From Microthyrium microscopicum (Eukaryota), in NCBI GenBank assembly GCA_010405405.1, contig MU004248.1:1-64000 (forward strand): a stretch of 64,000 bases of DNA. Direction: 5' to 3'. How positions within the stretch are numbered: the first letter of the stretch is position 1; the number at the start of each line of letters is the position of its first letter. The position numbers and the translations under genes were made by a program. The notes beneath the pieces were generated by a model. That model did no database searches and was not told where the DNA came from. It saw nothing but the letters and a program-made list of their open reading frames with translations. This document shows, in pieces, positions 6,601 through 45,781 of this stretch.

Positions 6601-6899
6601 AGAATAGTTTATCTTAACTATTTAATTATTTAGTTAAGTTACTAGACCTAAATTTATCTATAGAAGAGCTCCTATATTATAGGTTAGATAATAAAGAGAT
6701 AAGTTATATTATAAGCCTACTAAATAGGAAAGTAACTTAGAGAGAAAGAAGAGTTAAGAGACTCTTTAATTAAGGTATTTATATATAATAGGGATAGTCT
6801 AAATAAGTATAGCTTTAGGGGGTTTAACTCCTAATATTATCTCTTCTATTTAAAAAATTCTAGCTAAAATACTAAATTAATTATAAGATCCTAATCTTA

Positions 6900-8200
6900 T
6901 TTAGCTATGTCTAATACTTACTATTCTTATAGTTTATAATAAAGCTTCTATTTATAACGTATAGATCTATATATTTACTTTTAGGTATAAAATATAAAGC
7001 TTAAGTTATTAACTATTAATTCTATATTAGTATTTTGCCTATTTTAGACTAAATTCTAAGTATAAGGCCCCTTTTTTAGTATATAATATTAGTTCTTTTT
7101 AGTTATAATTCTATAAAGGTTACTTAATTAATAAGTTATTTTATTTATACTTAGTTAGAGCTCTATTATAATATTAAGGAATAAAATTAAAAGAATATAA
7201 CTATAATTAAGTTATTATANNNNNNNNNNNNNNNNNNNNNNNNNNNNNNTTAATTAATTAATTAATTAAGTAAGTTATTTATTATAATAGCTATAGCCTT
7301 ACTAACTATATAGAGATAGCTACCCTAATTATTAACGCTTTTAATAATACTATTAGCTTTAATAGTTATATTCTTATTACTATTACTTTTCTTTATATAT
7401 ACGTTACTAACTATAATACTTCTTAATCTTATTTACTTACTATATATAAGGTAGCTATACGTAAGGCTTATTAGAACGATATAAATAAGAGCCTTTACTT
7501 TCTTAACTAAGTTCTATTTTATTACTAGAATAATATTATTTATAACCCTTATCTTTATTTGCTAACTACTCTTTAATATAAGAAGGTATATATAGTTATT
7601 AATTATTATAATCTATAAAATTATACTTTATTTAAGGTACTTTATATTAACTAGATTATATGTACTTCTCTAGCCTTTCTTAATTTATATTAATATATTT
7701 ATAGAGTAAAGCCCTTTATATTATAGCTAACTATTCTTTTAACTCCTTTAATAAGCGTCTTAACTTATTAAATACCTTCTCTAAAGAATTTACTAATAAT
7801 TTATAGCTTAACGTTTATAGTATTATAATTTATTAAAGCTCTCTTAGTATAATTTAGTTAATTAGTAGCTAAGCTAGTTATCTTAAAGCCTTAGGTATTT
7901 ATTATATAAGTATCTTATAATTCCTTATTAAAAATAAGTAAAATAAGACTTATAAAGAGTAGTATTATACTTATTATATTAACTATTTTAATTTAAAGAA
8001 TTAGCTATAATATATAGATTACGTTTAGCCTTTAGGATTTCGTAGTAATATATATTTAAACTACGTCTATAATAATAATATTAGCTTAGCTAAGAAGTAT
8101 CTTTATAATAATAAAGAGAAGGTTACTAAAGAAGATAAGAATCTTTTACTATTAACTATCTACTTTAGTTCTTCTATACTCTAAGGTACTACTTAGGTTT
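6900..8200 (+). pseudogene. Putative RIP-decayed intron-containing cargo gene antisense to element C, with a Cys-cluster relic
   Basis: 44-nt intron-like segment 7270-7313 (GTAAGT..ACTAAC..TAG) plus other donor-like sites. Frame 7975-8106 has only TAA/TAG stops and a Tyr spacing that de-RIPs to a six-Cys pattern. Boundaries approximate; contains an N gap. Confidence 0.5.
7220..7249. other. Assembly gap (30 N)
   Basis: Run of N. Confidence 1.
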
Positions 8201-11200
8201 ATCTTTTTTAGTAGTAAGAGTTTATTAAGTATATCTTATTTCTTTAGTTTTTTTATATTTTTATAATTTTCTAGTTTTATTTAGTAAAAAAAAAAGTCTT
8301 AGTATAGATAAAAGAAAAGTATTTCTATATATAGGTTATAAATAGTATTTTTAATTATATTTTTATAGAATTAATTACTATAATAAGAAGGCTAGTTTTT
8401 AATCTTAGTTATACTTAAAGAATAGACTAGTTTAGTACTAATCTTTTATAATTATCTTATATATATTTTATTTTCTCTATTTACTTTATATAAGCTTCTA
8501 ACTATTTAATAAAGTTAATTAGTTCTTTTATTATATTTAAATAATTTACTTATTTAATAACGTAAATTATATAAAGTTTACTCTTTATTATCTTTTTATA
8601 TTTTTTAGCTATAATCTTCTTTATTAGCTACTTTTCTTATTCTTTTTTATCTAAGTTCTTAACTAAGATTAGTAGTAGATAAGAATTATTAACGTCTTAA
8701 CTTAGAAATAAGTTATTTATTATTAGTCTAAGTAAATTAATATAGAATTTCTTAGTTCTTTATAACGTATTTAGTATAATTATATATAAGCTTACTACCT
8801 TTATAACTTAAAACTTAGAGTAATAGTAATTAAACTTCTTCTTTACTTATTTAGTCTTAGTATTCTTTAGGTTTAGCTAGACCTAATTACTAACTTTATA
8901 CTTAGACGTTTAGATTCTTATTTAGTTAACTTATTTTTATATCTTTTCTTAGATAAGGGTTATAATATCTTAAGCTTATTTTATAGCTTTTAAAATTATA
9001 TAAGTAGCTTCTTTTCTCTTTTCTTTTAAAGTATTCTTTTATTTAGATAAGAAAGCTTACTTAGAGAAGTCTAAGAAAGTAAAGTTTTTAAAGCTATAAA
9101 ATAAAAAGAAGAGTAAGAGTTTTATTATAAATAAGCATTATAAGTTAAGTATAAGTTAAAGTATTAGTATTAGTAAGAACTAGTTTAATTATATATAATT
9201 TATATATATTTATATTTTAGCTTTAATATTTAAGTTCTACTATTTTATAAAGCTATTTATTTAAGAGTAAAATATAGTTAATAGCTATAGTTTTATCCTT
9301 AGTAGTATATAGAACCTTATTTAGAAATTTCCTATAAATACTAAGTTATAATTATAGATAATTATATTAGGAATACTATAGAAAGAATAGACGTATTATA
9401 AGAAAATAGTTATAACGTCTTTAGCTTCTCTCTAAGTAAAAAAAATTAGAATTACTCTTTTATTTAGCTAATTAGTAATAACTATTAAGATTATATATTT
9501 ATTTAATAAAGGAAGATTTATTATAAAATCTATAAATAGTTCTTACTATTATTAGCTTAGAATAAGTAGAGGCTTTAGAAAGCCTCTTTTTTACTTATAA
9601 CTAACTTTTAATTAGCTATATATATTATAATTTTTTATAAAATGCCTTATATTAGCTATAATTTTAGGCTAAAAAAAGTATAGCTATAGAGTTTAGTAAG
9701 TTCTTTTATAGTTAGGATAGCCTTAAGTTAAAAACGTATAAGCTACTTATAGTATTACTATCTATAAAGGTTTTAGATTTAGGATCTATAGTTATCTTCT
9801 TTAATAAAGATAATCCTTACTATTAATTAAGTAGTTAGAAATAGAGATTTTAATATTTATAATTAATAGAGAAAACTTCTATTTACTAGCTTTAATTATT
9901 TAATAGGCTACTTAATAAATATTATTAGTCTATACTACCTTATTCTATTAAGTTACTAATAGTTTTAGGACGTTTAATATTAATAGTAGTAAGCTAAGAA
10001 TTAAAGCTTTATTAGCTAGTAAAGTCTCTACTAATTTATCTTTAACTATTATAAGAAGGGTAGTAATATAAATAAGTAAGGCTTATAGTAATTTAAGTAA
10101 TTAATCTTCTTAAGTATAAAGTAGTTAGAAAGTTCTAGCCTAGATCCTCTTATTAGCTATATTCTAAAGTATATTTTATTTATAATAAGAAAAACTATCT
10201 ACTATATTATTTTATAGGCCTAAATAGTACTTAATTATTATATTATACTTTATAAGTTTAATAGACTATTAAATATATCTTTTTATAAGCTTTTATAGTT
10301 TTATAAAATGCTCTAAGTTCTTATAATTAAATATTACTTTAAACTTTTCTATTACTTATAGTTCTAAGTCTTATTTTTTTAGAGTAAGTATAATTATAAG
10401 TATCTCTTTATTATAGATTAAGTAGTTACTTTAAGTAGAGTTATACTTTTTAAAGAAATAGGCTACTAGTTAAAACTTACTTATCTTATCCTTTTATACT
10501 AATATAGCTTCTAAAGAATAACTAAAGAAGTTAGTATAGATAAAAGTCTTTTTATTATAGTTAAATAAAGCTAGTATTTAGTTAGTAGTAAAGAGCTATT
10601 TTAGCTTCTTAAACGTAGCTCTCTTTAAGTCTTTAAATAAAAAGAGAATATTCTTCTAGGTAAGTTAAATAAAAAGTTTTATAATTATTTAAAAGTTTAG
10701 TATAAATTTATAATAGAAATTAATAAAGCTAAGGAAAGCTTAAACTCTATAAACATTCTTAAGAGCCTTCTATTCTTAAATTACTTTAACTTTAGCTAAG
10801 TCTATTAAGATTTTTTATCTAGCCTTAATAATATAACTTAAGTATATTATCTAAGTAGTTATAAATTTATACTTCTAAATATTAAGGTAGAGTCCTACTT
10901 TTTATAGCTACTTAAAGACTTTATAAATATAAGCCTTATATTACTTCTTAGTATTTAAGTTAAAAATTAAGACGTTATTTAAGTATATAAAAATATAGTT
11001 ATTTAAGATATCCTAAAGAGTAGAGTTAATAAACCTTTAAAAGATACTTAGAGTATTTAATAACCTAAATAATATTACTATCTATTTAAATAAGCTATAT
11101 TATATCTAAAAAGCTATCTTTTACTTATTACTCTTATATATTTAAATCTTATAGAATACTTAAGATATATCTAGCTTAGTAAACTATTATATCTTTCCTA

Positions 11201-12105
11201 AAGCATTTAGTATCTTATAAATAAGTAGTAAAAGGTAATAATCCTTTATAGTTAACTTATTTAACGTATAGTAGTTATAATAAAACTAAATTAATCTATC
11301 TACTTTATAAATAAAGAGAATTAGTACTCTAATAAATAAGTTACTTACTTAAATAAACCTACTTTCTAGTAGATTATTAAGGATTTTTCTAAGGGCTAGT
11401 AATTTATCTTAATTTATAGAGTATAATACCTACTAAGGTAACTAAGGTTTCTTTCTATTAGCGTTTAGAATTAGGTTAATCTTATAGTCTATAGAAAGGC
11501 CTTAAATAAGTAGCTATTTATTAGCTAGCTTTCTTTAAAAAAGGTTAAGATAATCTAAATACTATTTAGGAAGCTTCCTATAAAGATTAATATACTTCTT
11601 AGAAGTAAGGGCTTTTTATAAGTTATAAAGACTTATAGTAAAGACTTATATAATTAGTATTAAGCCTTCTTAAGACTATCTTACCTACTTTCTAGCTTAT
11701 TAAGTAAGTATCTTAAATATTATAACTCTAATAGCTACGTAGTTATACTTCTTTTAAGGAGTCTTTAGACTTATAATTATATAACCTATTTTATTAAAGA
11801 CTAGCTTCTTAAGTTTTATATAGAGAATAATATCCTATTTCTTTATCTAAGGTAGACTAAGAATTATATTATAGCTTAGAGTCTCTTTTACTATAAAGGC
11901 TTAAATAGTTTCTTTATAGCCTTTAATATTAATCTTTATAATTATTATTTTATAAATTTCTCTAACCTTATTATTTATCTCTTTAATAGAAATTGCCTAA
12001 GGTAGTAATATACGTTTAAGTTTATATCTTTAGATAAAATAGAGACTTATAAGGAAATAGGTTAAGTAGCTACTATTAATAAAGCCTATATATAAAGAAA
12101 GTTAA

Positions 12106-15100
12106 TGTTATGGATCTACTACTATTGATCCTATTATAACATTATTAGCATCCTCTATTACGTAATGCTAAAGGCTTAGCGCCTAAGGATTATCTAGTAT
12201 AGCTTACCTATAACTATTTCCTACCCTCTCTCTTAGATTCTTTATATTAGTTTTCTTAAATTATATCTACTATTAGCTTATACCCTTACGCCTATAGGTC
12301 CCTAATATAAAACTAATACCTTATACTATTTAAAAAACAATCCTAATTTTTAGCGTATTAAAATCTAAAGATTTAATACGTTTACCTATATAAATATAAA
12401 ATCCTATTTTTAGATCTTAGTAGATCTAACCTACTAGCGTAGTAAATACATAAACTCTTAACCCTTAACCCTACTAAAAGCTTAGACTTCTAGCGTCTAA
12501 TTAAAGGGCTTAAAGGACCCTAGTTAACTTAAAACTTCTACTCTACTAAACTTATAGGTTAATAATCTTTCTTTACTACTACTACTTCTTTTTACTACTA
12601 TACTTATAGTAAGACTTTACTTATTCTACTATACTATAATAAGCCCTAAAGATAAACTATAATAAATTAAACCTCCTACTCTTTTCTTTAAATTACTTAT
12701 TATATCTTTATAACCTATCTATACTTTATTTTAAAACTTCTTAGCGCCTATACCTACTACTTATACTTACTCTATATTAAATCCTTATCTTACTATAAAA
12801 GACACTAGTAAGACTTATAAGACCTATTCTATATCTTATCTTTATAAGTAATAGCAATTAGAGACTTAGAATACTACTTAGTTTATAATTATACTACTTT
12901 ATATTTAGATTAATAGTAATAATAATAACGCTACGATAGAACTATCTTATAGCTAAGCTTTATGCTATAATTCCTTATACTCTTATTATAGCTCTATAGC
13001 TAAGGCACCTCTACTATCTAATGTCCTAAAAATTATTAAAAGTAGCTATATCTATAGCTAATTATAATTTTAAAATAAAGGCAAAGAGAAGGTATTCTCT
13101 ACTAATTTTTTAATTGCTATTCTTTAACTAGTAGACTAGGCCTAGATTAAAGAGCTACTCTTAAACTACTAAATATCCTCTTACCTTATTACCTACTAAT
13201 TAATTACTCTAAATAAGAAGAATTAAGTACTCTTAGTATAACTCCTCTATAAAGAAGTTACCTTCTAAGCCTAAGAAACTATTCTTTTAGATAGTATTAT
13301 TAAAAGCGTCCCTCTAGACTCTATACTTATACGTTATACTTAAGGTAACTTATATTTAGAAATTATTAAGACTTATAAAGGATTCCTTTATAGTATTACT
13401 ATATTACTAGAACTTTAGTTTAAATAGCTACGTAGTTATATTAAATTAATCTAAGTAGCTAATCTCTATATTTAAGAGACCTACGCCTAATTAAATAATA
13501 TAATAAATGCTTACTAATACTATAAGTAAAGTATTAAAGATATAACTAATAAACTTAATAACGCTATAGTTGTAGCTAATAAAACATACGTAAAGGTAAA
13601 CTAACTTTATAAATAACTTAATTATATAATTAAAGCTAACTATAAAGATAATAAATATGTCTTTTACCTAGAGAATACTTATAATATAAATTAATAGGAA
13701 CTTAATAAAATACTTAATAATATTAAATAACTATATACTTTCTATACTAAGAAGCGTAATAAGATTATAGCCCTTCGCCTCTAGAATAAAGATCTTAAGG
13801 ATTAGCTTAGTTAGTTTATATATAAGTCTAAAGAGAATATCTACTAACTTAACTCTAATAATAAGTAAGTAATACCTCCTCTTTATTAATAAGTCTCTTA
13901 TATTTAAATTAATAACCTAACCCTAGTAGTATCTAGATTCTTAGCTAGTAGTAAAAGCAAAAAACGTAAATAAAGTAATTTAGGCAAATACTCTAGTTAT
14001 AACCCTAAATAATACTCTATATAAAAACTCTATATTAAGGACTATCTCTATAATAAGTAAGCCTCTTTTCCTATAGAACTAGACGCTACTATTTAAGTAC
14101 GTAGTAAGACTCTTAATATTACCCTTAGATTTGTTAAAGACTATACTTAATATAAATTACTAAACTTATACTTTAATATAATAAAGTTCTAGGAGGATCT
14201 AAATTAATATACTTAAAAACGCAATACTTATAAAGATACTATTACCTAGTTATAAAATTCTTTAAACTAAATAAAGAAGAATAAGAAGCTTACTCTATAT
14301 ATTACTAAGTTTAATAGTAAAATTGCTAATACTAGCCTTATAGAAGTAGATAAGGTTACTTATTTTAAATATATAATTATTAAAGAGATTATATAGTGCC
14401 TATTCTTTTCTAAAGCTACTACTATTACTAAATATATTAACAAGTTATAAGTTATTAACTAAAACCTTAAATACAAAACTAATAATAGTAAGAAACTATC
14501 TAGTAGTTAGAATAATAATAATAGTAACTAAACTAATAACTAAATTAACTACGTACTACGCTATAAAGTTACTCTTTATTAATATCTAATATAAGACTAC
14601 TACTATACTTAATATAACAAATGAGATTATAATTATAAAGATAAGAACTTAAAGTATAAGGGCAAGCTAGCCCTCTCTAATTTTAATATCTTTATTAAAC
14701 TTACTAGTATTTATCTATAGTAAGATAATACCTAACTATAAAACCTAAACTTATAGTATAATTACTTATTAATATATAACGATTATTACTACTAGGACTA
14801 AGGAAACTAGACGCTTCTTTATAATGCTACGTAGAGAAGCTAAATAAAATAAAAGCGTATAATAAACAATAAAAATGTTAAATAAAGGCTATTATTAACT
14901 ACCTAAGCGACTCTAAGACTAAAAGTAATCCTATAGGCATAGCTATTATCTATATATTAGTAGCCTATATTCCTATTAACTAATTACTAAAATATTCTAT
15001 TCTAAAGATAAGCTAATAGTAGAGTACTACTAGCAATATCCTTATTAATAATAACGCGTATACTAAAACCAAAGTCCTAATTAATATAGATAATAATATT

Positions 15101-18100
15101 TTTAGTATTATTAACTTCTACTATCTTAAAATCTATAGCATTCTATTAGTAGAGATAACCTAACCCTACTACACTAAAATAACTAATAACTACGCTATTA
15201 CAAAGATAACCTATATAGTAGCTATTATATTACGTATTAGTATTTATCTTAAATAGATTCTCTACTTTATAATAGAAGTTACTAACTATAATATAATCTT
15301 TAGTAACCTATAGGTAAATAAATACGAAGTTATACTCTAAGGAGGCTAACATATATTAGGTTTCTACTCTAAGCATTATATAAGGTACTATATAGCTTTC
15401 TATTACTTAATTACTATTAACTATAAAAGTTAAGTAGTTATAAATAAATAATAAGAAAGAACTCCTAATATCTATATAGTATTACTATAAGTCTTTATAG
15501 CTATAATTAAGCATAAAGATTACTATTTTATAGCTCTTTACTAAGAAGACTTTAAAGCCTTAAAAGAAAAAGAAGACCCTAACCCTATCCCTTAGTAGAA
15601 CGTTGCTAGTATTACTATAATCTCTACTAAAGACTATACTAAATAGCGTAAAAAGCTTAACTATAACCTACTAACGTAAGAGGAATTACTAAAATTAATA
15701 CTACTAGAATTCTATTATTACGTCTTCTTATTTAACTCTTACTAAGCTAATAAACTACTACTATACTAATTAGGTTTTAATTATACTATTACTATTAACC
15801 TAAATATAAAAGCACCTATATATAAATCCTATAGTATATCTTACTAATAGGTATAGGTCATTAAGGAATATATTAAGAATATACTTAGAAAAGGCTTTAT
15901 TTAACTAAGTACCTTTTACTATACTATATCTATATTATATATTAGCAAACTAGGTAGTAGTATCTATATCTATATTAACTACTATAGACTTAATAAGATT
16001 ATACTAACTAACTAAAATATATCCTTACTCTTAATAGAAATATTAATAAAGATCTATAAAGCAAAATTCTTTTTATAATTTAACGTTATTACTATCTTTA
16101 ATAATATTTAAATTCACGAAGAAGATAAGTATAAGACTATGTTCTTAATATGCTATAAACTCTTTAAAACCTTAGTAATGCTATTTAGTATAATAAGATT
16201 ACTAGGAAGTTTTTAATCTTATATTAATAGCGCTATATATAAATACCTTAATAACTTTATTATAGTCTACCTTAATAACGTCCTTATTTAGAGTAAGACT
16301 AAAGAGGAGTATATTACTTATGTTTACCTAATCTTTAATAAGCTTAAAAAAGCTAGACTCTACCTTAATATTTCTAAATCTAAGTTTATAACCTAATTAG
16401 TTAAATATCTTAGTATTATTATTATACCTAATAGAATCTAAATAGATAAAAAGAAAGTTAATACTATACTTAACTAGTACTACCTTACCTTCCTAAAAGA
16501 CGTCTAGATATTTCTTAGCTTTATAAATTTCTATTACTATTTTATTAAAGGATACTTAAAAATTATTATACTACTTACTATACTAACTAAAAAGGATGCT
16601 TCTTTATACTTCCCTTAGAATAAGACTAGACCTAAGAAATAAGTATTTAACGCCTTAAAGAAGGCCTTTACTACTACCCTAATCTTTTATTATTTTAACC
16701 CTAATGCTAAGACTTAGGTTAAGACTAACGCCTTAGATTAAGTAATAGTAGCTATCCTTTTATAAAAAGGCGTAGATAGTAAGCTTTACCTAGTAGCTTT
16801 TCTCTCTAAAAAGATAACTCTAGTAGAATATAATTACAATATTTATAATAAAGAGCTTCTTATAATTATATAGGCGTTTAAGAAATAAGAACCTAAATTA
16901 TTTTTAACCTTTAACCTTATATAAGTTTTTACTAACTATCTTAACTTATGCATTTTTATATTAACTAAAAAGCTATTCTACTATTAAGCTTAATAAGTAG
17001 AGTTCCTCTTCTAATTCTAGTTTAAGATTAAATATTATAATAGTCTCTTTAACATAAAAGCAGATATACTAACTTAGAAATTATAAGATCTTCTAAAATC
17101 TAATAATAATCTATAGATTACTTAATAAATATAACTAATCCTTTCTCCTTATAACTTTAATACCTACTATAAAATATCTTACTCTTATAATACCTAATAT
17201 ACTATTAAGATTACTATCCTCCTTATTAATAGTAAATAACTTATAATAATTAAACTTACTATAATTATTACTAATAAAGTTAACATACTAACTATAAAAG
17301 GTAAGTTAATTAATTAACTAACTATAGAAAGTTCTACCCTAATCCTAGGTAAGCTAATTAATTACCTTAAGATAAATAGTGCGCTAGCTAACCTAAAAAT
17401 ATTATAGAAAGATATTATTAAGGCTAGCTAATTAGATAAGCTTATCTAAGTAATCTATAACTCTAAGGTAGTATAATCATATTATCTACTATATAGTACT
17501 CTAAAGAAGAATTTAATTAAATTTAGAGACTACTAAGTACTTACTAATAGCACTATTTAATATAGATAATAACTCTTTATCTCTCCTATAGAACGTCTCT
17601 AATACTATACTATTATATATATATATAATTATAAAGTTATAGGTTATAGTAGTATAGCTTCTATATACTAGCGCCTTTATTAATTTTACTTCTAGCCCTA
17701 TATAGCTAAGGATATAAAGTACTATATTAAAGTATATAAGTACGCATTTTCTAAACTAGTTAAGTAAAAGAAGTAGGATCTTCTTTACTTATTCTTACTA
17801 CCTAACTATACTTAGTCTAATATTTCTATTAACTTTATAGTTACTTTACTACCCTATATTTATCTTAAGACTATCTACTACTATATTATAATTATTATAA
17901 ATAGACTAATACGTACTTAATAGTTTATTCCCTTCTCTAACTTAAGTATATAGATAATAGTCTTTACGTTTCTTAACTAAATATAGAAGTATATAAGATA
18001 GCTTAACTCTATCCTCTCTAACTATAGTTTATAATTTATATTTATATTCTAGCAACGTCTCTATAAGCATATTAATATTATTATCTACCTAATTACTACT

Positions 18101-31800: not shown

Positions 31801-34800
31801 AAGGACGAGCTAGAAACTATTCCTACTACTAACAAAACATTAAGATATTAAGCCTATATATCTAACCCTAACTTAGATAATAAGGAAGGGGATAAAGACG
31901 CGCTAAATTATAACTTTAACTTTGACCTAGAGCCAAAAAATCTAGAGCCTATAGAGAAGACTTAGTTAAAATAATTAACTATAAAGAAATAAACGTTTAA
32001 TAAAGAACCTATCCTTACTAAAGAATAAATCTAGAGCATAGTTTAAGATATAATTAAGCGCCTACAAAAGCTAGTAGAGCTAGAGCTAGCAGTAATTTAA
32101 ATCTTCTTAGTATCTATTACTAATAGCTTCTATCTAAGAAATATTTTAGAGATACTCATAGTTAGCGATTAGTAGACTACTAAAAGTATAGCTTATTTAC
32201 TAAAAGCAAAATATTACGTCTAAATTAATATATTAATTAATATAGGAAGTAAAGCAATAAGTATTATATACTTAAAATTTATTTACTAATATAATATTCC
32301 TATAATAAATCTATCTACTTCTTAAGTAATATAACTTACTAATAGCAAAGCTATTACTAAGGTAGATAAAGCTACTATAGTAAACGTTTACCTTAGTAAG
32401 CATATTAAGCAAATCTGCTATTTCATTATAGACGTTGCTAATTATAATATTATCTTTAGAAATCTATAGATAAACCTTTATGAAGTTACCTTAAAGAAAA
32501 GCAAAAAAGAGATCTACTTTAACTTCGCTTATTACTTAGTAAATTACTTACTCTATAGCTACTTAATATTAATAGATTATAAAGGCTATTCTTATAACCT
32601 TACTAACTCTCTACTAGATAAAAAAGATATTACTATAGTTAGCATAGTAGCCTTTATAAAAATATTAAAATAAGGGTAGAAATTTAGCAAAGTATAGCTA
32701 AAGGATTTAGATAAAGATAAAAATAAAGTACTACTAGATTCCTCTATACCTAAGACGCTAAAAGAGAATATTACGATTAACCTCTCTAAGATATCTTTAG
32801 AAGATTATAAAAAGTAGTATAAGAAGTATAATTAGCCTCTATTAAGTTATAAAGAAATTTTAAAGAAACTATTAAAGGAATTCTATTGCTATATTAATAT
32901 CTTTAACCTAAAGCTAAGTAATAATTTAGCACTACACTATAGCGAATAGGACTACTCTATTAATATTATCTTTAATACTACTATTCCTAAATAAAGATAT
33001 AATACTCTCTTATATTAAGAATTGCTAGTTATTAAATAGTATATTAATTAGATACTTAGCCGTAATTAAGTTTAGGCTAGTAAATCCTACTTTGCCGCCC
33101 TAATGTTATATATATATAAACCTAAAGATAGTATCTATGTCTATATTAATTACTAAGGCCTAAACGAAATAACCTAGAAGAACTATAACGTCCCTTTATA
33201 ATTACTAGAAACCTTAGCTAGAATATACTATATAAAATTCTTCTTAAAATTTAATATTATTACTACTTTTACTTATATTTAAATTAAACTAGGAGATAAG
33301 TATAAAACTACGTTCCTTATCTATTACAATCTCTATAAATTTAAGGTTATATTATTTAGCCTTATAGGAGCTTTAGGCACCTTTTAAGCGTACTTAAATT
33401 ATATCCTTATAGAATACCTTAATAACTTCGTTACTAGCTATATAGATAACCTCCTAGTCTTTAGTAAGAGCTAAGATTAGTATACTACGTATATCTACCT
33501 TATCTTAGAGGCTATAGGTAAAGTAGGCCTCTACCTTAATATTAATAAATATAATTTCTTTACTAAATAAATTAAATACCTTAGCCTTATTATTACTACT
33601 ACTAGCATTAAAATAGATTTAGATAAAGTTAAAAGCGTTATTAAGTAGGCTTAACCTTTATTAATTAAGGACGTATAGGCATTCTTAAGCTTTACTAATT
33701 TCTACTACTATTTTATTTATAGTTACTTCTAAACTACTACTTCTCTTATTACCTTTACTAAAAAAGATACAATAGTAATCTTTTTATAAAATCTAGACGG
33801 ACCTAAGGACTACGTATTTAAAAAGCTAAAAAAGAACTTTACTACTATACTTATCCTTTACTACTTTAACTATATAAAGAAAATGTAGTTAGAAATAAAT
33901 ACTTCTAATTAGGTATATGCTATAGTGCTCTTCTAAAAGGATAAAGAAGGCAAATTATAGCTTATTGCATTCTTATTAAAAAAGATAAGCCCTATTAAGT
34001 ATAATTATAACATTTATAATAAAGAGTTATTAGTAATTATCTACGCCTTTAAAGAATAGGAACTAGAGCTATTCTCTATAGTAGATATAATTAAGGTATT
34101 CTTAAACTACTAGAACTTATAAACCTTTATAATAACTAAAAAGTTATCCTACTAATAGGCAAGATAGGCTAAATTTCTATTCTAATTCTACTTCTAAGTT
34201 TAGTATTGCTCTAGTCTATTTAATAATAAAGCTAATATACTTACTTACTAATTATAAGATCTACCTTAGAATAATAATAACCTACAAGTCTCTTAGTAAG
34301 TCTAACTGCTATTATTCCCTTACTAGTTTAATACCCCCTATGCTATTAAGTTAGCCTTATTATTAATTAAACTAGTAGCACTATTAATTATATACTTAGC
34401 TACTATTATTTAAAATAAGTTAAATATCTTAACCTCTATAAAGGAGTTAATAGATCCTATAAAAAGGTTAGTTAGTAACAAAAGACTACCTAGGGAGAAG
34501 TTAATAGAATCCCTAAGAGATAATAAATCCCTAAATTTTAATAGCAATTAGTTTATATAAGATATAGTTTAAGAGTCTATTAGTAATAAAACTATAAAAG
34601 CAATCTAATAGGCTAAAGCAAACTACTAGACGTATTTACTCTTTAATATACCTAAGTAAGAAGGTATTAAGTTAGATAACTATGTAGTTACTATAGATAA
34701 TATAATTCTATACTATAACTATATCTTTATTCTCTATAGTAAACTACGTTACTAAGCTTTATTCTTTACTTATAGCTATAAAGTTATAGGCTATAAAGAA

Positions 34801-36699
34801 GTAGCTATAATCTATTATTACTTATAAGAGACCTATTAGTAGTCTAGAATATTATAAGATATAAAGATATATATAAAAGGTTATAAATACGTCTTTACTA
34901 AACTAGTATGATAAAAGAAGTAAAGATTCTTAAGAAGCTTCCTCTTACTAGAACGCGCTTAGTTAGATATCTTTATTAACTTTGCTATTTTATTACTATA
35001 CTACTACTACTAAGAAGTAATCTATTACTATGTTATAGTTATTATAGATTATTATATAAGAATACGTCGCTTTATTCTACTACTAGACCTCTCTATAGAA
35101 TCTATAGTTTTAGTATTTATTAACTATATCTAAAGATTAATAAGTTAGCCTAAAAGTATCCTTTTAGATCGTAGTAGCTAATTTACCTTAGCCTTTTAGA
35201 AACGTTTATATAAACGTGTTAGTACTATTCTTTACCTTAGTATAGCTTTTTACCTAAAGATAGACGGTATTATAGAAATCTCTATTATAACCCTAAAGTA
35301 GTATTTATAAGCCTTTATTAATTAGGATTAAGATAACTAGGTTGCTTTACTACTATTTATGGAATTTATAGTTAACTTAGTAGTAAATATAACTATAGGA
35401 ATTATGCCCTTCTAGGTATAAAATAGCTTTAATCCTTAATTAGGCCTTAAAGCTAATTACTCTATTCTTTACTTATTCTACGCCTCTATTACTACTAATA
35501 AAGAAGAAGCTAATGTAGATATTATATAATAAGGCTATACTAATATATATAAATACTTTATAGAGTAACTTACTTAGGCTTAGGCATAATAAGCTAAGTA
35601 TACTAACTATTACTATTAAGCTATACTAAATCTATAGCTAGGTAATTAAGTAAGATTAGATACTTGTAATTACTCTACTTCTTATTCTTTAAAAATACTT
35701 AATAGTAAAAGCTTTAAACTTTTCTATATTATTAAAAAGATTAACGCTATTATATATAAGCTAAATCTACCCTCCTTAATAAAAATACATAATGTCTTTT
35801 ACGCTTAGATCCTTTACTATATTACTAATAATACTAAACTTCTAAAATATTTAAATCCCCTTCCTATAATTATAGGTAAGACTAAAGAAACTATAAAATA
35901 GTAAGTAGATATAATTATTAATAGCTATTACAAGCCCTAGACTAAGAAAAAGACGTTATAGTACATAATTAAATTTATAAGCTATAATATAGTAGAATAG
36001 TATGATTAGTATAACGCTAAGAACGCTCTAGATTTAATTGTAGAGTTCTACGCCTATTACCCTAATAAGCTAAGCCCTTACCCCTCTTAGATCTTACTAT
36101 AGCTAGAGCCTACTAAAGATAATAACGTTATGTATAACTTTAATGGTGTCCCTACTAATTAGTACTAAAAAGTTTACTTTCTTTATATTATTAATACCCC
36201 TATTTAGCATAGATATACTAGCCCTTAAACCACTAGGACTTAAAAACTAGAGTATTCTAAAGATATCTTAAGGTTCGTTAATACCTCTTAATAGTTGCTT
36301 TAATAAGCTAAAGGTTAAAATGCTCTAAATATCTAATTGTTAGCATTATATTATAGAAGGAATTTATTAGACTAGACTGGATTAGACTAGACTAGACTAG
36401 ACTAGACTAGACTAGAATAGACTAGGAGAGTAATAATAAGCTAAGACAGCCTAGAGAGCTATTCTAAAAGAAAGGGTCGTGTAATAATTCCTTATAGTAC
36501 TAAGTATTAAGAGAGATCTTAGTATTATAAGATTACGCACTAGACCTAAAAGGGTTAGCGCGTCTAAGGTTCTACTAAGCAGACTTACTTTCTTTATAGA
36601 TCCATAGTAGTTCTAGATCTTTTTCCTCTTTTCCTCGTACGTAGATTCTTGAATACTAGCTAATTATCTGCTTAACTCTAAGTCCTACTGCTCGTTACA
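28820..36699 (+). mobile_element. Element F: full-length (7.9 kb), innermost and apparently least RIP-mutated chromodomain Ty3/gypsy, related to D in pol
   Basis: 220-bp LTRs at 28820-29039 and 36480-36699 (TGTAAT..GTTACA); 4-bp TSD CCTT/CCTC. RT relic YIDNLL at 33439-33456; PPT AAAAGAAAGGG before 36480; TTAGAAAACTAA at 31694-31705 resembles a RIPed GGAAAAC gag-pol slippery site. Confidence 0.95.
36366..36425. repeat. (ACTAG)n pentanucleotide microsatellite in the 3' UTR of F
   Basis: About 12 units; one unit reads ACTGG, suggesting a pre-RIP (ACTGG)n. Confidence 0.9.
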
Positions 36700-39600
36700 C
36701 CTCTAAGGTAGCTTAGCTTATAGATAAACTACTCTAGCTTAGAGAAGAACCTTAGAGGTTCCTAAGCAATAAGATAGAGGCTAAGGAATCTCTTTATAGT
36801 TCCTTAGTAATTACTCCTATCCCTATTTCTATATGCCTAATCTATTAAGTATCTTATAACCTTTTTACCTACTCTATAACCCTAATCTCTAATAAAGATA
36901 TTATTAAAACTTAGCTTAAAAGATTCTTTATTCTCTACTTTCTTATTAAATCTCTTAGAAGTTTATTAAAGCTTTTATTTCTTTATATAAGTTATAAAAG
37001 AGAAAGTTTATTTATTTTATAAACTTATTAAAATTTATAATGCTATAGCTAATAGGATTCTAAATCTAGGGAAGGACTTATTAAGTAGTATCTTTTATAA
37101 GCTAGCTAAATATATAGTAGATTTAGGCATAGTTATCTATATAAATTTATTTATTAATATATAATTTTGCTTTAATTATTTAGTAAAAACTAGGATAAAA
37201 GGTTAGGTCCTTATATAAATATTATTTTAAGTTTAGGAGAGCTAGTTAAAAGTTTTATAGTAGTAGTTAAAGTAGCTTATATTAGATAGCTAAAGGATTT
37301 ATTAGAGGAGGTAGAGGAGGGGCTACTAATCTAGCTATTATAATTAGAATCTAAGAAGGATTAGCTTATAGAATTAAAGAAGGATAGTAGCTATAATTAG
37401 AGGTTTCTCTAATAAAGGATATAGTTAATATTAAAGAAAAAGTTATACTAGGTATTATAGATTCTCTTTAGAGTTATTTTTATTTCTACTACTACTACTA
37501 GGTTAGCGTCTTATAGATAATATTATTTACTTATTATATAAAGATCTTACTATTAGCATAAATATTAGTAAGTTATTTATTCTAACTATTAACTTAGGTT
37601 TAGAGTTTAGCGTAGATTATTACAATCTATTACGTATTCTTATTTAATTATATATAAATTTTACTAGTTAACCTATTTAGTTATTATAAAGCTTATTTAT
37701 AACTAATAATAGTTATACGTAATTATAAAATAAATAAATTAAGTATATTATTAAGTAGTAAAATACTATCTATTACTTATTATAAGCTATTATTAGTTAC
37801 CTTTTAGAATATATTTAAGTAGTTCTATAGCTCTATCTATTATTAGTTAATATATATAAAGTACGCTTCTACGTTCTTATAAGTAAAGTCTTTAGAGAAC
37901 GTTTCTTTATCTTATCTAGTAGTTATTAAGTAAGAGGGATCTTAATTTACTATTTTAGCTATTTATTAATAGATAAAGAGAAAGTAGGTAAAAAGAAGGG
38001 TTAGTTTTAAAGTTACCTAATGTTATAGGTTAGATAATAAAGAGACAAGTTATATTATAAGCCTACTAAATAGGAAGATAACTTAGAGAGAAAGAAGAGT
38101 TAAGAGACTCTTTAATTAAGGTATTTATATATAATAGGGGTAGCCTAAATGGGTATAGCTTTAGGGAGTTTAACTCCTAACATCCTAAGTAAGTATTTAT
38201 AGTTTGCTAAAGCCTTTAGTAAATAAGATATACTTAAACTAGCCTAATATAGTCTATAAGACTTTAAGATTAACCTAAAGCTAGGCGCTATAGTACTATA
38301 TAGACTTATTTATAGCTTCTTAGAGGCTAAGTTAGTTATTCTATATAAGTACTTAGATACTTACTTTATAAGAGGTTAGATTTAAAAGTTAAGATTCCTT
38401 ACTAGAGTTCTTATCCTCTTTATAAAGAAGAAAGATAGAATATTATAACTCTATATAGACTACTAAAGCCTAAATAATATTACTATTAAGGATTAGCATA
38501 TATTACCTCTTATTAAGGAGTCTTTAGATAGACTTTAAGGCGCTAAGTTCTTTATTAGTTTTAACTTACGTAAAGCTTATTATTATTTATATATTAAAGA
38601 TAGTAATAAGTAAAAAACTACGTTTAGAACTAAATATAGGATATTTAAGTATATAGTAGTTCTATTTAGACTTATAAATACTCCTATGGCTTTCTAAGTA
38701 TATATTAACTAAGTATTAAGAGGCTTAGTAGATATAATATATATTATTTATCTTAATAATATTCTTATTTACTCTAAAACTAAGAAGTAATATATTAAAG
38801 ACGTTTAAGAAGTTCTATAGTAACTTATAAAGTATTGTTTATATATAAAACTATCTAAGTATAAGTTTTATACTAGTAGTATAGAGTATCTAGGTTATAT
38901 TATAACCTTAAATAGTATTACTATAAATTAGTTATAAGTTAATATATACCTAAATTAGCTAAAACTATGTAATGTATATTAAGTAAGGAAATTTATTAGC
39001 TTTATAAACTACTATTATTAGTTTATTACTAGATTCTTCTATATTACTATACTACTAAACGCTTTAACCTAGAAAGAACTAGGTTAGGCCCTAAAAGGCT
39101 TAAAGCTATAATAAAAAGAGTCTATAGATATTAAATTACTACTAAATGCCTTAGATTCTTTTAATAAACTAAAAGATTCTTTTATAAATATACTAATTTT
39201 AGCTTATTTTAACCTTATGCTTTCTATATAGTTAGAAATTAATACTTTTAGAAAAATAATTTATAGGATATTAAGCTAAAGATAGCGTAATAAAGGCTAA
39301 GATAGCTTATAAAAACCTATTATATTCTATTCTTAGAAATTATCTCTACTAGAGAGTTACTATAAGACTTTATAATAAGAGTTCTTAGTAATTATAAATT
39401 CCTTAAAAGTATTTAGAAAGTACTTATAAGGCTTACTAGACTAATTTTAGGTTTTAATAGACTATATAAACCTTAAATTACTTAAAATAATACTAAAAAT
39501 ATTATTAATATATATAAGATAGGTAGATTTACTCTTAGAATATAATTTTAATATTAAGCACTACCTAGGTAAGATAAATCTAGCTAATAGACCCTTAAGA

Positions 39601-41779
39601 CGTCTAAACTATATTAAAGAGGGCTAAAAAGAATAGAAAAAGACTATAGAAGCGTTACTTAACTTACTTTATAATAAGTTATAGCTTAATAACGCTTCTA
39701 TAGCTAAAACTAACGCTATTAGACTTATAGACTCTATTATTACGTATATTAGTATTAATATATAGTATTCTACTATAAACTAACTTAAAAGGAGTTAAGA
39801 TAAGCTTACTAAGACTTAGAAGTATTTAAAAATAAGCTCTAGTAAAATTTTAGCTATTAATAAACTACCTTTAGCTAAGAATGACTTAGACAAAGCTAAA
39901 TAGATAAGTAGAAATCTTGTTTTTATTAAGAAAGAGTTATAAAAGAAGAAAATTCTATAAAGGTTCTATAATAACGCTATAGAAGGTAATTATAGAGAAT
40001 TAAAGAAGATACTTAAGAAGATTAAGCGCTATTATACTTAGAACTATATCTAGAAGAACGTTAAAAACTATTATAAGGCTTATTTTAACTATTAACGTAA
40101 TAAATTTATTAAATAAGCCTAGAAAGGATTACTAATATTCTTACTAGTCTTAAAAGCGCTATAGAAGGATATTACTATAGATTTTATTATAGATTTGCTT
40201 CTAAGTATCTATAATAGTTAAATTTATAACTTTATTATAGTAGTTATTAATAAATTAATTAAAATAGCTTACTATATCTTAATAAGAAAGAATATAGACG
40301 TAAAAAACTTTACTAAGATCTTCTTATAAGAGGTTATATACCTATATAGCGTACCTTATACTATTATATCTAATTAAGAACTTCTCTTTATTTCTAAGTA
40401 CTAAAAAATATTTCTTTATTATCTTTCTATCCTTAGAAAGCTCTTAATAGTATTCTATTTATAGACTAATAATTAAATAGAGCGCTTAAACTAAGAAGTT
40501 AAGTACTACTTATAAATTTATAAGTATTAAGAATAAAACAATTAAGTAAAATAGCTTAGTTTAGCTAAGTTTAACTATAATAATAGTATTTACTTATTAA
40601 CTAAAGTTACTTCTTTTATTATATATACTAAAAGGAACCCCTATGCTCCTAAATTAGCTAAAATGTTATTAAAAAGTATTATACCTAATACTAAAGAAAT
40701 AGTAAACTATATTCTATCTCTATAATACGTAATAAGAAATAAATTAGCTAAAGTATAGCTATACTAAGCTAACTAGTATAATAAAAGAAAGAAGAATATT
40801 TATTTAAATATTAGTAACTAAGTCCTACTTAATATAAAGAATATTTAAACTATTTACGTTAAGAAGAAGCTTAATATTAAGTATATAGGTCTCTTTAAGA
40901 TTATAGAGGTTATAAATACTAATACTTACTAGCTTAATCTCTTAAAGAATATATAAGTCTATAATATATTCTATATCTTTTTATTAGAACTATATAAGCT
41001 AAATCCCTACTTTCTATAGAAGTTTATATTACTATAGGATTCTTTAAACTTAGAAGACTTAAATATATATAATATAGAGAAGATAATAAAGTATATAGTA
41101 AATAAAAGGAATAAATATTACTACTTTATAAAATAGAAAAATTACTTAAAGTTAGAATTAACTTAGGAGCCTATAGCTAATCTTTCTTTAATTACTTTAA
41201 AGCGCTATTATATAAAGTTAGCTAAAAAGAGTATTATACTAGTAATAAGTATAATTAAAAAAGTAATTAAATATAAAATAATATATCTAAATAATATTAT
41301 AGATAGGTTAATAAATCTTAACTCTATAAGACTAAAAAGATAGCTAAGAAGGCTAAAGAAGATCTAAAAGACTTAAGATAAGCTTTTAAAGAAAGGAGAT
41401 AGTTACTTTATAATTTTCTTACTAATTAGAACCTAAATTAATTTCTTTATATATATATTATAATAAATTAACCTAAAGTAACTTAAATTTAGTATTAGAT
41501 AATAAGTATATAGAAAAACTACTAAATTATAAATATATAAAATAACTTAAAATAATATACAAAATAAGTTACTATACGTATATAAGGAATATCCTTTTAA
41601 GAACTCTTTATAATATAAAATAAGGTTAAAATATATATTAGAAAATATATAAAAGAATAAGTAATTTCTAACTAAGAGTTAAATTAGCTATATAATAGTT
41701 CTATAAGGGTATCTACTAATAAACCTATCCTTAAGAAGTCCTAGAAGGATATTTATTAACTAACTTATCTTTAAGAGAT

Positions 41780-43600
41780 ACAAAATAACTTAATATAATA
41801 AGAAATAGCCTTACTTAGCTAATTAAGGCTAAATATAAATAATACTAAATTCTAAAAGACTTAAGATAATCTATCTAACTCTATTTTAATCTAAGAAAAA
41901 GCTATCTAACCTATTTTATACTTTTTTATAGTAAGAGCTATAGCCTTAACTTTAGAATAGTTTTTATTAATATAATTATTTTTATAAAAGGCTTTAATAG
42001 CTTTTTTAATATAGGCCTTAACCTCTTAGTGCTTAGAAGTACTAAGATAAGCCTTATAGTGCTTAAGAAGTACTTAAGAATTTAAAAGAATGCTAGCTAG
42101 GTTATTCTTAATATTAGTAAGTTACTATAAAATAGTTAGACGTAAAATAACTTAATATAGATATAAAAAAACTTACCTAAGATATATTAAGTTTTTAAGG
42201 ACTAATAATATAGTAGAAGTCTATATGCTAAGAATATAGTATATTATAGTACTTAAAGTGCTTAGAAGAATAAAATTAGATATTAGCACTTAAGAAGGCT
42301 AGATAAGCTATAATACGCTTCTCTAATTCTAAAAGGCTATTATTTACTAGCTTTTAGGTAGCTTTAGTACCTATATAGTAGTTAATAAACGCGTAAGTTA
42401 TATAGAAGCTACCCTTAGTAATACTAAAGTATAATAGGAAGAAGTTAGTTACTAGCTACTTAGATATATAACTATAAACTAATTAGCGTCTAAATACGTA
42501 AAGCTAGACTAGAATTAGTTAAAATAAGTACTTATAACTTATAAAGAGTTACTATATACTTATAAGCATACTAAATATTATTATAAAGTATATACTTATC
42601 CTTATAAGATAATTTATTCTAAGAACTATTCTTAAGAGTATAAATAACCTTATTAATAGTAATATAGACTAAAATAAGCTTAGCCTTATTATAAAGGTCT
42701 TAATAAGAAATAACCTACCTATATTAGTATAATATAATATAAAATAAGCTAGAATAAGATATTATCTTTAAATAATCCTTAATTAACTTTATATTAAGGT
42801 ATTTAATAAAGTACTTACTTAAACTAACTTACTAAGTATAATAATAGTCTAAGTTAGAAATAAGGTAGAGTTTAGTAATTAAAAAAGGAAGAAAATATAC
42901 TATATAGACCTCTATATAATACTAATAGGAATTTAGAATTAAGTAGTACTATAATAGGCTAAGTAAGGCTATAACGCTTTTATTAGCGTATTTTTACTCT
43001 ATCTTATTCTTAAAGACTACTTTAGTAAGGTTTATAATATTAGTAGTTAAGATTTAGTTATTATAGAACGTGTTAATATTCTTACTAGTAAGAATAGTTA
43101 TTATAATCTTACTAAAGTTAAAGTTATTCTTAGTAAGGACTTAAAAGCTTTTAATAGAATCTTTAAGTAACTTATTTATATTAATGCTTACTTTAAATAA
43201 AAATAGGTTTAAAAGTATATAAGTTAGTTAAGATAAGTTATTAAAGATTAGAAAAGTATAAAGTATACTAAAATAGATTAAAAAAACCTAAGAAGATACT
43301 AAGTAGCCTAATAACTAAAAAGAGAAAATTTATAGTTACTAGAAAAAAATCTATAATGTAAAATAGATTAGTAATAATAATCTTTATATATATTTATAAA
43401 ACTATAGAATTTCTACTTACTTTAAAATTTAGAGTATAAAGAATAAGAGATAAAGAATTTAGAGTAAGAAGAGTTATTTTATATTTAAATCTCTTTACTT
43501 TTCTAAAATAGCTAAGTATTAATATAATAGTACTTAGTAAAGACTTATAAGAGCTTTCTATAGTAAAAGGAAGTTATATATAGTATAGTAAATACTTAGA
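41780..43600 (-). pseudogene. Putative RIP-decayed multi-intron cargo gene antisense to element B
   Basis: Minus-strand intron-like segments 42176-42125 (GTAAGT..CTAAC..TAG), 42718-42669 (GTAGGT..GCTAAG..TAG) and 43420-43351 (GTAAGT..ACTAAT..TAG); further donors near 42818 and 43191. The intervening frame of about 120 codons (42550-42177) has only TAA/TAG stops. Confidence 0.55.
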
Positions 43601-45771
43601 AAAGTTATAACTTTCTAAATAGGAAAGTATAATCTTAGCTTTAGAGTCTCTAAACTTTTAAGTAAAGATTTAAATACCTTACTATAAATAACGTAAAATA
43701 ACTCTTAATTAGATATAAAAAGTATTAAGATATATATATAAGGGGTACCTCTTTAAGAACCCTTTTTAATATAAAATAAAGTTAAAATATACTTTTAATC
43801 TAGAGCTAAATAAGGCTTATAAAGTAGTTTTATATATAAGTTATAGCTACCTAATCTACTATAAAGCTAATTATGCTAAACTAATATAAATTTAGTATAT
43901 TTAATATAATATAACTAACTAAGTTAAGCTATATATATTTTAATAACTTAATAACCTATACTATATATAGAATAACTATTTAGTAGTATTTTAATAAGAT
44001 TTAATTAAATATAAATAGTAGTACTACGCTATATTTATAGATAAGTTAATTTAACTCTAATAAAGCTAGTATTAACTAATTAAGACCTTAATAGAGCTAT
44101 TAACTACTTATTAGATATTTTACTAATATATTAGACCTTAATAACTAGACTTCTTTAAGTTTAAGTTAATATAGTTAATTATAGCCTAAAACTAGTAAAA
44201 AATAAAGAGCTATCTATTTAGAGTAGGTAAAAAATAGAGGGCTATTTATCTTAAATAAGTAATATACTAAAGCTAAAGAATAAGAATATTACTAGGCTAT
44301 AAAAGACTCTCTAAGGTATAAGTAGCCTAATTCTATATATTTAGTTAAGTCTTATCCTCTTTTAAGTCTTAGTATAATAGAGTATAGTTAAAAGCTATAT
44401 ATAAGTATAAGAAATATTTATTAAAACCTTTAAATATACTTTTTAGAATAAATAGCTTTAAGAAGAGGAATAATATTAAGAACTAGAATACTTCTAGTTT
44501 AAGATAACTACTAATAAGATATATCTATATAGGATAAAGCGTTATTAGTTAGGTTAACTAATAATAACCTATTATAAATATAGATAGCTTAGTAGAGTCT
44601 TTATAGCTCTAGGTAATAAAGAAGAGAGATTATAAGAGTCTAAGTAACTCCCTAGTAATTACTCTTATCCCTATTTTTACGTATCTACTTAAACTATAAT
44701 AATTATAATCTTTACCTACTTAGAACGACCTATTTCTAATATAATACTTCTTAACGTACCTAACTAATAAGGATAAATAACTAATTTTTTATATATAAGA
44801 GCTTATTCTAAATTAATAAATCTAATATTTTTAAATAATAGCCTTTCTTAAATAGTTCTAATAGTAAATACTATATTTTTTACTTCTATATTATAATAAG
44901 GCTTTAAAGTTTTTTATTCTTTAAGTAACTATTCTTTATTAGCTTAAGAATACTTTAATAATCCTTAGGATCTAATTTTATTAAGCTTTCTTTAATTCTA
45001 GTATAACTATTCTTAATACTTTTAGCTTTTTAGCTATTTATAAAAATTTTAGTTTATATCTTATTCTTAATTCTAATACTAGTATTCTTATTCTTATAAG
45101 TAATCTCTTTATAAATTATCTTAGCTAAGTCTAGAATATCTACTTTTTAATTATTTAATATTATTTTAGCTAGTTCTTTTATATATCTTATATTTTAATA
45201 TAAATTCTTATTAAAATAATAAGCTCTTAGAATTTACTATATTATTTAAGTCTACTAAATATCTTCTTTTTTTAGTATATTACTTAATAGCTTAAATAGT
45301 ATATTTACTACTTTATTTTATATATTTAGAGTATATAAAATTTTAAAGTTAAACTTAAATAAAAACTTAGCTTATCTAGCCTACTACTAATTTAAGTATT
45401 TTAATATTATAAACTATTTAAGGTTCTTATAGTTTATAATAACTTTAATTAGGTTATTTATTCTTAATAACTCTAGGTTTTATTTCTTAAATATATAAAT
45501 TATAGTAAGTAATTCTTTATTATATATTTTATAATTTATTTTTATTAATAATATCTTCTTAGAAAAGAATACTACTAAGTAAAGCTAACTATTATATTTC
45601 TAAAATAGTATAATACTAATTATAAAATCTAAGGTATTAGAATAAACTTAAGTTTTAAAGTCTAGATTAAAATATTTTAAGATAAGTACTATTATAAATA
45701 TCTTCTTTAATTTATTAAAGCTCTTTTACTTAATATTATCTAACTTTTAAGAAAAAGTAAATTTCTTTATA

Positions 45772-45781
45772 NNNNNNNNNN
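45772..45781. other. Assembly gap (10 N) inside the RT-RNase H region of element A
   Basis: Run of N; both flanks are element A pol, with the RT C-terminal part missing. Confidence 1.

Follow-up and report, generated by a model that had tools for sequence, protein, structure and literature searches.

The 64,000-nucleotide (nt) window from Microthyrium microscopicum (positions 1 to 64,000 of contig MU004248.1, assembly GCA_010405405.1) contains six nested Ty3/gypsy chromoviruses, which are referred to as elements A to F. Elements B, C, and E have a long region between pol and the 3′ long terminal repeat (LTR), hereafter called the cargo, and sequence that appears to have been protein-coding is present in all three of these regions. 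The explanation that we favor, with somewhat better than even confidence, is that the sister families B and E and, separately, C are chromoviruses with an additional protein-coding region between the end of the pol chromodomain and the polypurine tract (PPT). In B and E, two blocks in different frames would together make up ~1.5 kb of coding-like sequence in this region, most probably antisense to gag-pol. An antisense gene at this place would have a promoter of its own close to the 3′ LTR. Judged by analogy alone, its product may be an accessory protein serving the element, perhaps in a DNA-binding or regulatory role.

Long regions between pol and the 3′ LTR

The six elements, which were mapped by direct repeats and by self-comparison with transitions collapsed, occupy a 46-kb AT-rich block (3490-49657, 15-28% GC) surrounded by gene-bearing flanks with a GC content of 0.45-0.51. 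Five LTR pairs differ by 116 transitions versus 3 transversions, and the transitions fall into CpA (40), CpT (27), CpC (13), CpG (5), and ambiguous (31) contexts. The low GC content of the block is due to repeat-induced point mutation (RIP). RIP is saturated, and every copy in the window is dead. Nearly all YRR codons (Y, pyrimidine; R, purine) are stops in every frame of the six cargo segments counted, and practically all Gln, Trp, and CGR-Arg codons have been turned into stops by RIP. Since RIP makes transitions only, the purine/pyrimidine string of a RIPed gene is that of the live gene.

Pfam scans on chosen frames, with stops read as X, found RT_RNaseH_2, RT_RNaseH, and SH3_Tf2-1 in B and E, RNase H in C (E-value 2.7e-12), and a weak Chromo match in B (E-value 0.005, below the cut-off). 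They missed reverse transcriptase (RT; RVT_1), integrase (rve), and gag in the RIPed elements. RIP-invariant profiles, written in a purine/pyrimidine codon-class alphabet, were built from the unmutated protein P0001, the best clean relative of B pol, together with five metagenome pol open reading frames (ORFs). The RT profile matches 6/6 elements at 85-165 nats (null maximum ~17), the integrase profile likewise matches 6/6 at 39-98 nats, and the profile of the SH3/chromodomain end matches all elements except A (5/6, 26-60 nats). The elements fit the Ty3/gypsy chromovirus order of RT, RNase H, and integrase, followed by SH3 and chromodomain. Such RIP-proof profiles, which found RT and integrase in all six elements where Pfam found none, may help to read other RIP-ruined DNA.

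The SH3/chromodomain profile ends at 18721 in D, 36078 in F, 8697 in C (minus strand), 25509 in E, and 41187 in B, where the P0001 chromodomain aligns as far as 41181. The 3′ LTRs of these elements start at ~19312-19326, 36480, 6838, 28651, and 44473, respectively. From profile end to 3′ LTR, the distance is ~0.6 kb in D and ~0.4 kb in F, versus ~1.9 kb in C, ~3.1 kb in E, and ~3.3 kb in B. Without assignment of a strand, the B cargo spans 41283-44472 (3.19 kb), the C cargo 6839-8471 (1.63 kb), and the E cargo 25650-28650 (3.0 kb). The original prediction, made from the letters of the window, had pointed to this size contrast, which is borne out (~0.4-0.6 kb in D and F versus 1.6-1.9 kb in C and 3.0-3.3 kb in E and B), and had placed the three regions within ~100 nt of the coordinates mapped here. 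The PPT AAGAAGAGGAATA ends at 44472 in B and the PPT AAGGAGATA ends at 28650 in E. PPT-like purine runs are found before the 3′ LTRs of five elements (A, B, C, E, and F). In B, C, and E, they abut the 3′ LTR, which places the long regions inside the elements. Element A is without a long region; its integrase match stops near 3749-3870 (3870 for the minus-strand integrase profile).

Genome contigs of the source organism were placed, at a likeness of at least 80%, on a stretch of the window that includes the cargo of E and B. Every E/B cargo bin is covered and there is no step in depth at the edges, depth being summed over contigs rather than read from single contigs bridging pol, cargo, and LTR. 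The summed depth is 2996-5889 over the B cargo versus 4355-7653 over B pol, and 3042-6531 over the E cargo versus 5251 in the last E pol bin. Being repeated at about the depth of pol, the E and B cargo are part of the elements and not random spacer. The contig differences are overwhelmingly transitions. A run from a second organism contains pieces that are ~85-92% identical to both the E and the B cargo (24-39 differences in 266-434 nt). One run guessed to be RNA gave four contigs with LTR and short low-complexity pieces only, and is uninformative on expression.

Coding periodicity, strand, and origin of the cargo

Coding potential was measured as the period-3 Fourier power of the purine/pyrimidine string with micro-repeats masked, against 300 Markov simulations per segment. 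In E, where the minus strand is favored, segment 1 (27200-28100) has a power of 16.2 raw and 9.4 masked, and segment 2 (26200-27000), which lies in another frame, has 8.4 and 5.3. The B cargo has the same arrangement, likewise with the minus strand favored, with 7.6 raw and 6.5 masked in segment 1 (42400-43300) and 3.2 and 3.9 in segment 2 (41700-42300), again in another frame. In C, with the strand undecided, segment 1 (7640-8340) reaches 6.1 raw and 7.1 masked, and segment 2 (7140-7740) reaches 8.0 and 8.6. The maximum of the simulations ranges from 4.7 to 6.6 across segments. As for the controls, gag reaches 17.8 and two pol windows score 3.9 and 5.3, while four non-coding windows from LTRs and untranslated stretches stay at 0.0-0.7. 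The flanks of the E segments, 25650-26200 and 28150-28650, carry no period-3 signal.

It is very improbable that there was no gene and that the periodicity arose from short repeats or from RIP acting on skewed sequence. The E cargo does contain micro-repeats with periods of 9, 12, 18, or 21 nt, the masking of which lowers the power of both E segments, and the absence of any homologue (see below) fits a sequence that never encoded a protein. Nevertheless, Tandem Repeats Finder detects only micro-repeats of at most 80 nt in the cargo, and the signal outlasts masking in 6/6 segments and equals or exceeds that of genuine pol windows. The LTRs and untranslated stretches, although equally RIPed, are nearly flat, and a process confined to transitions (116:3) leaves the purine/pyrimidine pattern unaltered.

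We then compared the two strands. In the best frames, the antisense strand has fewer stops than the sense strand in 6/6 segments: 18 versus 27 in E segment 1, 22 versus 31 per 300 codons in B segment 1, 18 versus 21 in B segment 2, and 20 versus 21, 20 versus 21, and 14 versus 17 in the remaining three. In calibration, the true sense strand had fewer stops in 34/50 held-out 900-nt coding windows, with 5 ties. A purine/pyrimidine dicodon model named the correct strand in 49/73 held-out coding windows of 600 nt and in 45/62 of 900 nt. Its scores for segments 1 and 2, positive meaning sense, are -1.9 and -6.9 in E, +6.6 and -3.0 in B, and +7.6 and +2.7 in C. A linear discriminant combining stop counts and dicodon score, which classified 76% of its 34 calibration windows from known gag-pol sequence correctly, yields a P(antisense) of 0.94 for E, 0.90 for B, and 0.56 for C. 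Moreover, the longest stop-free stretch of the AT-rich block (97 codons, 28019-27729, minus strand) lies within E segment 1 and the second longest (87 codons, 26893-26633, minus strand) within E segment 2, both in frames that the dicodon model predicted independently. An antisense reading of the B and E cargo is likely. The antisense gene that had been proposed for all three elements is thus favored in two of them and undecided in C.

Alternatively, the extra coding sequence could lie on the gag-pol strand. Pol might be extended at its C terminus through a frameshift or readthrough, or there might be a third sense ORF (env-like or other). The positive dicodon scores of B segment 1 and both C segments argue for such an arrangement, and so does the purine excess that the B and C cargo show on the sense strand of the element. 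It is nonetheless unlikely, given that the antisense strand is poorer in stops in every segment, that the combined classifier calls B and E antisense, and that in E the pol end is followed by ~550 nt lacking a period-3 signal (power 0.5-0.7) before the first block begins. Purine or AT skew as a guide to strand was rejected, as the pol sense strands here are inconsistently purine-rich.

The original prediction had based the antisense genes on triplets of donor, branch, and acceptor sites spaced like introns. Five such triplets of 44-70 nt do exist opposite gag-pol. One is in C (7270-7313, 44 nt), one, the best-looking and canonical in sequence, lies between the two coding-like segments of E (26940-27008, minus strand, GTAAGT...TACTAAT...TATAG, 69 nt), and three are in B (43420-43351, 70 nt; 42571-42504, 68 nt; 42176-42125, 52 nt). 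Their density on the cargo antisense strand (0.64/kb) is higher than in the RIPed gag-pol cores, where it is 0.30/kb on the sense strand (10 in 32.9 kb) and 0.27/kb on the antisense strand (9 in 32.9 kb), and the cargo sense strands have none versus ~3 expected. The excess is not significant by a Poisson estimate (p ~0.08-0.2), and Markov-1 and Markov-2 simulations of the cargo antisense strand contain 3.1-3.3 triplets versus the five observed. Hence, the triplets and their higher density stand, while an occurrence above chance does not. As 69 nt is a multiple of three, the E triplet cannot yield the frame change between its flanking segments. Spliceosomal introns in the cargo are unsupported. 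Any antisense introns would survive retrotransposition, since they would not be introns on the genomic (sense) RNA.

Aside from the chance-level number of triplets, several points weigh against an antisense gene in these regions. No ORF of at least 120 aa exists in the whole AT-rich block, which is accounted for by the saturation of RIP. Because the coding-like segments were selected from a sliding scan, the p-values attached to them are post hoc; the strongest period-3 signals survive correction for the ~300 windows scanned. The strand tests are weak, with a cross-validated accuracy of 67-76% per window of 600-900 nt. The dicodon score alone favors sense for B segment 1 and for both C segments, and the antisense call for C is a coin toss. 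The cargo also lacks homologues. Pfam searches on 12 cargo frames gave no match at an E-value of 1 or below, TRP28 (Transposase_28, PF04195) included. With the E antisense frame 27201-28100, the only one queried, phmmer found no match among 1.84 billion representatives, and a metagenome scan returned 476 pattern matches, 0 of which were confirmed. These homologue blanks carry little weight because Pfam misses RT itself in this RIPed DNA.

A further point concerns the relation between B and E. Despite RIP, their pol sequences share 50.7% amino-acid identity over 1072 residues and are 83-85% identical with transitions collapsed; on the latter measure, gag plus the LTR end reaches 74%, and the collapsed global alignment of gag scores 865 versus ~620 in the control. 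As B and E are sister families, the three elements, originally taken as three cases, represent at most two independent lineages. Their cargo regions, in contrast, do not align: the collapsed global alignment scores 1004 versus a control mean of 974 (sd 17, z ~1.8), and diagonal-band matches number 79 versus 71 in the reversed control. At the protein level, the best score is 28.5 bits versus 33.5 in the control, which is not significant, and the codon-class alignment reaches 584 versus 528-575. The collapsed local alignment scores 65 versus at most 53 in 12 controls (at most 46 in six same-orientation controls), owing to a single 60-nt match between E 26795 and B 42387. In addition, E 27212 and B 42937 are connected in roughly collinear order on a single genome contig, a weak link. 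Either the extra gene may evolve much faster than gag, or the two elements may hold different sequences.

The lack of transversion-level similarity between the two cargo regions, though gag, pol, and LTR ends align, is also what old foreign DNA could leave behind. The cargo would then be a nested transposon fragment or a piece of a transduced host gene, different in B and E and carried as a passenger without a role. In accordance with such an origin, the cargo matches nothing else in the window in the transition-collapsed self-comparison, and the B cargo has an imperfect direct repeat of ~110 nt (41526-41636 and 43681-43792; 79% identical raw, 91% with transitions collapsed), the copies of which are 2.15 kb apart and enclose both coding-like blocks. 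We rejected this repeat as the LTRs of a recent nested element, since real LTR pairs are 99-100% identical. Nor is the cargo an independent high-copy element, as its depth equals that of pol without a step. Two diverged sister families have kept ~3 kb with coding periodicity in the same position, whereas dead weight would be expected to be lost from an active retroelement, and the contig joining E to B is a further, weak point against a passenger. Taken together, a foreign passenger seems to us rather improbable.

Known antisense genes and unmutated relatives

An antisense gene in the pol-to-3′ LTR slot is not new for fungi, since Boty-like elements provide a precedent, and plant precedents exist as well; additional ORFs of this antisense type, termed aORF-3R, include those of Grande, RIRE2, Retand, and Boty. 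The Boty gene, brtn, is said by citing papers to go back to Zhao et al. 2011, Virology 417:248. According to passages on these Ty3/gypsy elements, which occur in Botrytis cinerea and Sclerotinia sclerotiorum, brtn is an antisense gene located after pol and before the 3′ LTR (PMC8365987, PMC7264820, PMC4227169, PMC5987419), and the original suggestion that such a gene was undescribed in fungi has to be withdrawn. A section on LTR-retrotransposon consensus classes of B. cinerea also mentions additional predicted ORFs in more than one family (PMC8365987). Boty-like elements share with B and E the fungal chromodomain Ty3/gypsy type and the extra gene of opposite orientation in this slot, which for B and E is favored, not proven. 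They differ in host, which is of the Leotiomycetes there and of the Dothideomycetes here. They also appear to differ in size: the presumed brtn-like relatives have a slot of ~0.9 kb with an ORF of ~190 aa, in contrast to a slot of ~3 kb with ~1.5 kb of coding-like sequence here.

In plants, the Tat-lineage elements Retand, Grande, and RIRE2 are described, in the portions of the papers at hand, as having antisense ORFs in a long pol-to-3′ LTR region (PMC11963269, PMC7264820), which in Retand is 2.9-6.6 kb long and often contains short tandem repeats (PMC11963269). The same portions state that 97% of the plant element clusters encode a TRP28 domain (PF04195), and that the function of the antisense ORFs is unknown, with a regulatory or DNA-binding role suggested (PMC11963269, PMC7264820). 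These elements resemble B and E in the long region (~3 kb here) with coding sequence, which is antisense to gag-pol in the plant elements and probably so in B and E. In contrast to the fungal chromoviruses here, all of which are RIP-dead, they belong to plant non-chromovirus lineages. TRP28 has no match in the B, E, and C cargo, though Pfam is nearly blind on RIPed DNA.

Unmutated relatives of B pol were sought in two ways. A word-based search with B pol gave 24 matches, the best of them 27% identical, and thus no close named fungal relative; this search was probably swamped by AT-rich words. A metagenome scan with P0001 gave 80 loci. Seven of them, representing six distinct elements as L001 equals L002, have a conserved ORF opposite pol that starts 0-450 nt after pol, and they are a further precedent for the slot. 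These ORFs are at L001:3869-4699 and L042:5769-6404, both on the minus strand, and in L002, L003, L046, L048, and L063. Over 146 residues, the ORFs of L001 and L042 share 34% identity, and both contain CX2CX6CX8-9CX2CX6C, the spacing of fungal Zn2Cys6 (Gal4-type) clusters, followed by a coiled-coil-like stretch. Pfam Zn_clus matches P0145, a protein of this family, with an E-value of 0.004, which is below the curated cut-off. P0145 has 29 homologues of 152-217 aa; all named ones are from Leotiomycetes, and they include a Botrytis cinerea protein on 12 contigs. The whole family has 31 proteins (P0145-P0175) and is probably brtn, a name that no source confirms for it. A zinc-cluster protein borne by a fungal retrotransposon would be a candidate regulator. 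Our narrow literature search did not find a zinc-cluster reading of a retrotransposon antisense ORF in print.

We then inspected the cargo for this family. Searches by tblastn with the L001 and L042 ORFs gave no cargo match, and a hidden Markov model of the family found nothing in six-frame translations of the AT-rich block. The RIP-invariant profile of the family scores 15.3, versus a null of 16.7 ± 2.1 (maximum 22.7) and 25-165 for pol profiles. In addition, the spacing CX2CX6CX5-12CX2CX6-8C was searched as YRY codon classes, so that RIP changes of Cys to Tyr still match. This gave seven matches in 92,332 codons, about as many as expected by chance, none of which is in the E/B antisense frames. 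The two matches in the cargo, both on the plus strand (7300-7407 in C and 26800-26889 in E), contain stops and are Tyr-rich low-complexity sequence. A small, fast-evolving Zn2Cys6-like protein could evade detection here.

The pol relationships of B and E do not lead to the ORF-bearing clade either, and this is another point against an antisense gene. B/E pol scores 167-226 with L004, L008, L010, and L011 and 145-172 with P0001 and L042, which belong to that clade, and the four closest relatives are outside the seven loci with the antisense ORF. L004 and L010 end ~300 nt past pol. In L011, its near-copy L013, and L017, which are intact with LTR pairs, the sense pol frame reaches 18-38 nt before the LTR. 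The extension of ~255 aa beyond the chromodomain (L011:11859-12620, L017:11982-12758, and in L013) is basic and of low complexity, and matches no Pfam family in L011 and L017 above sub-threshold noise. The sense frame after pol is also kept in many degenerate relatives, with 30-43% amino-acid identity between distant members. These relatives support coding sequence on the gag-pol strand. In the window, however, a RIP-invariant profile of their sense extension, of poor quality, has no match (15.9 versus a null mean of 16.6). Pfam on the ORFs in the gaps of L035, L051, and L032 gave sub-threshold noise only.

Extra genes of unknown function have been described in LTR retrotransposons of plants and of a single fungal family. 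If an antisense gene in B and E is confirmed, it would be a second and larger fungal case in another class, would broaden the known range, and would hint at the pol-to-3′ LTR interval as a general slot for accessory genes of retroelements. Going by sequence, this case would be set apart from Boty by host class, by size, and by having no detectable relation to the Boty-type ORF. A bolder proposal is that a Dothideomycete chromovirus lineage carries a very fast-evolving antisense gene of ~500 aa unrelated to the Boty ORF, that the genes of B and E are non-homologous, and that the slot recurrently captures accessory genes, as was originally proposed; we regard it as tentative and unlikely to hold in full. 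The copies in the window cannot serve functional tests because all are destroyed by RIP. Their value would be as a pointer to live relatives in other Dothideomycetes.

Nested element map and host flank

The outermost element A (3490-49657, minus strand) has its 3′ LTR at 3490-3645 and its 5′ LTR at 49502-49657, is flanked by the target-site duplication (TSD) GCATC, and is interrupted by B. Element B (4450-44746, plus strand) has LTRs at 4450-4723 and 44473-44746, with gag at 4724-6669 and pol from 38185 to ~41283; C interrupts it at ~6670-38184. Element C (6670-38184, minus strand), with its 3′ LTR at 6670-6838 and its 5′ LTR at 38016-38184, has pol from 12093 down to ~8472 and is itself interrupted by D and by E together with F. 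Element D (12094-19525, plus strand), a comparator with a short pol-to-LTR region, is inserted in C and has LTRs near 12094-12307 and 19312-19525. Element E (20275-36894, plus strand), also inserted in C, has its 5′ LTR at 20275-20634 and gag-pol from 20635 to ~25650 on the plus strand. F divides its 3′ LTR into 28651-28830 and ~36700-36894, and the TSD AAGAT is present on both sides of E. Element F (28820-36700, plus strand), the other short-region comparator, has LTRs at 28820-29040 and 36480-36700 and lies in the 3′ LTR of E.

The TSDs of A and E agree with this nesting. With transitions collapsed, the LTR pairs of A, B, C, D, and F are 99-100% identical, and the split 3′ LTR halves of E are 95-96% identical. 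Other genomic copies of the E LTR are without F, as contig joints skip 28811-36702, and F is therefore a later insertion. Two runs of N are inside the RIPed block, one of 30 nt (7220-7249) within the long region of C and one of 10 nt (45772-45781).

The gene at 53361-55142 (minus strand) in the host flank encodes electron-transfer flavoprotein-ubiquinone oxidoreductase. Its ORF matches a protein of Microthyrium microscopicum at 100% identity, which identifies the host as a Dothideomycete, and shows 75-87% identity to proteins of other Dothideomycetes and Leotiomycetes.

At the other end of the elements, RT starts 3.4-4.0 kb after the 5′ LTR in D and F (12308-15728 and 29041-33022). This distance is shorter in E (~2.05 kb) and C (2.4 kb), as measured from RT alignment starts. 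The stretch in D and F has a strong period-3 signal of up to 14.7 and 17.4, respectively, and may correspond to a gag of unusual length or to an additional 5′ ORF.

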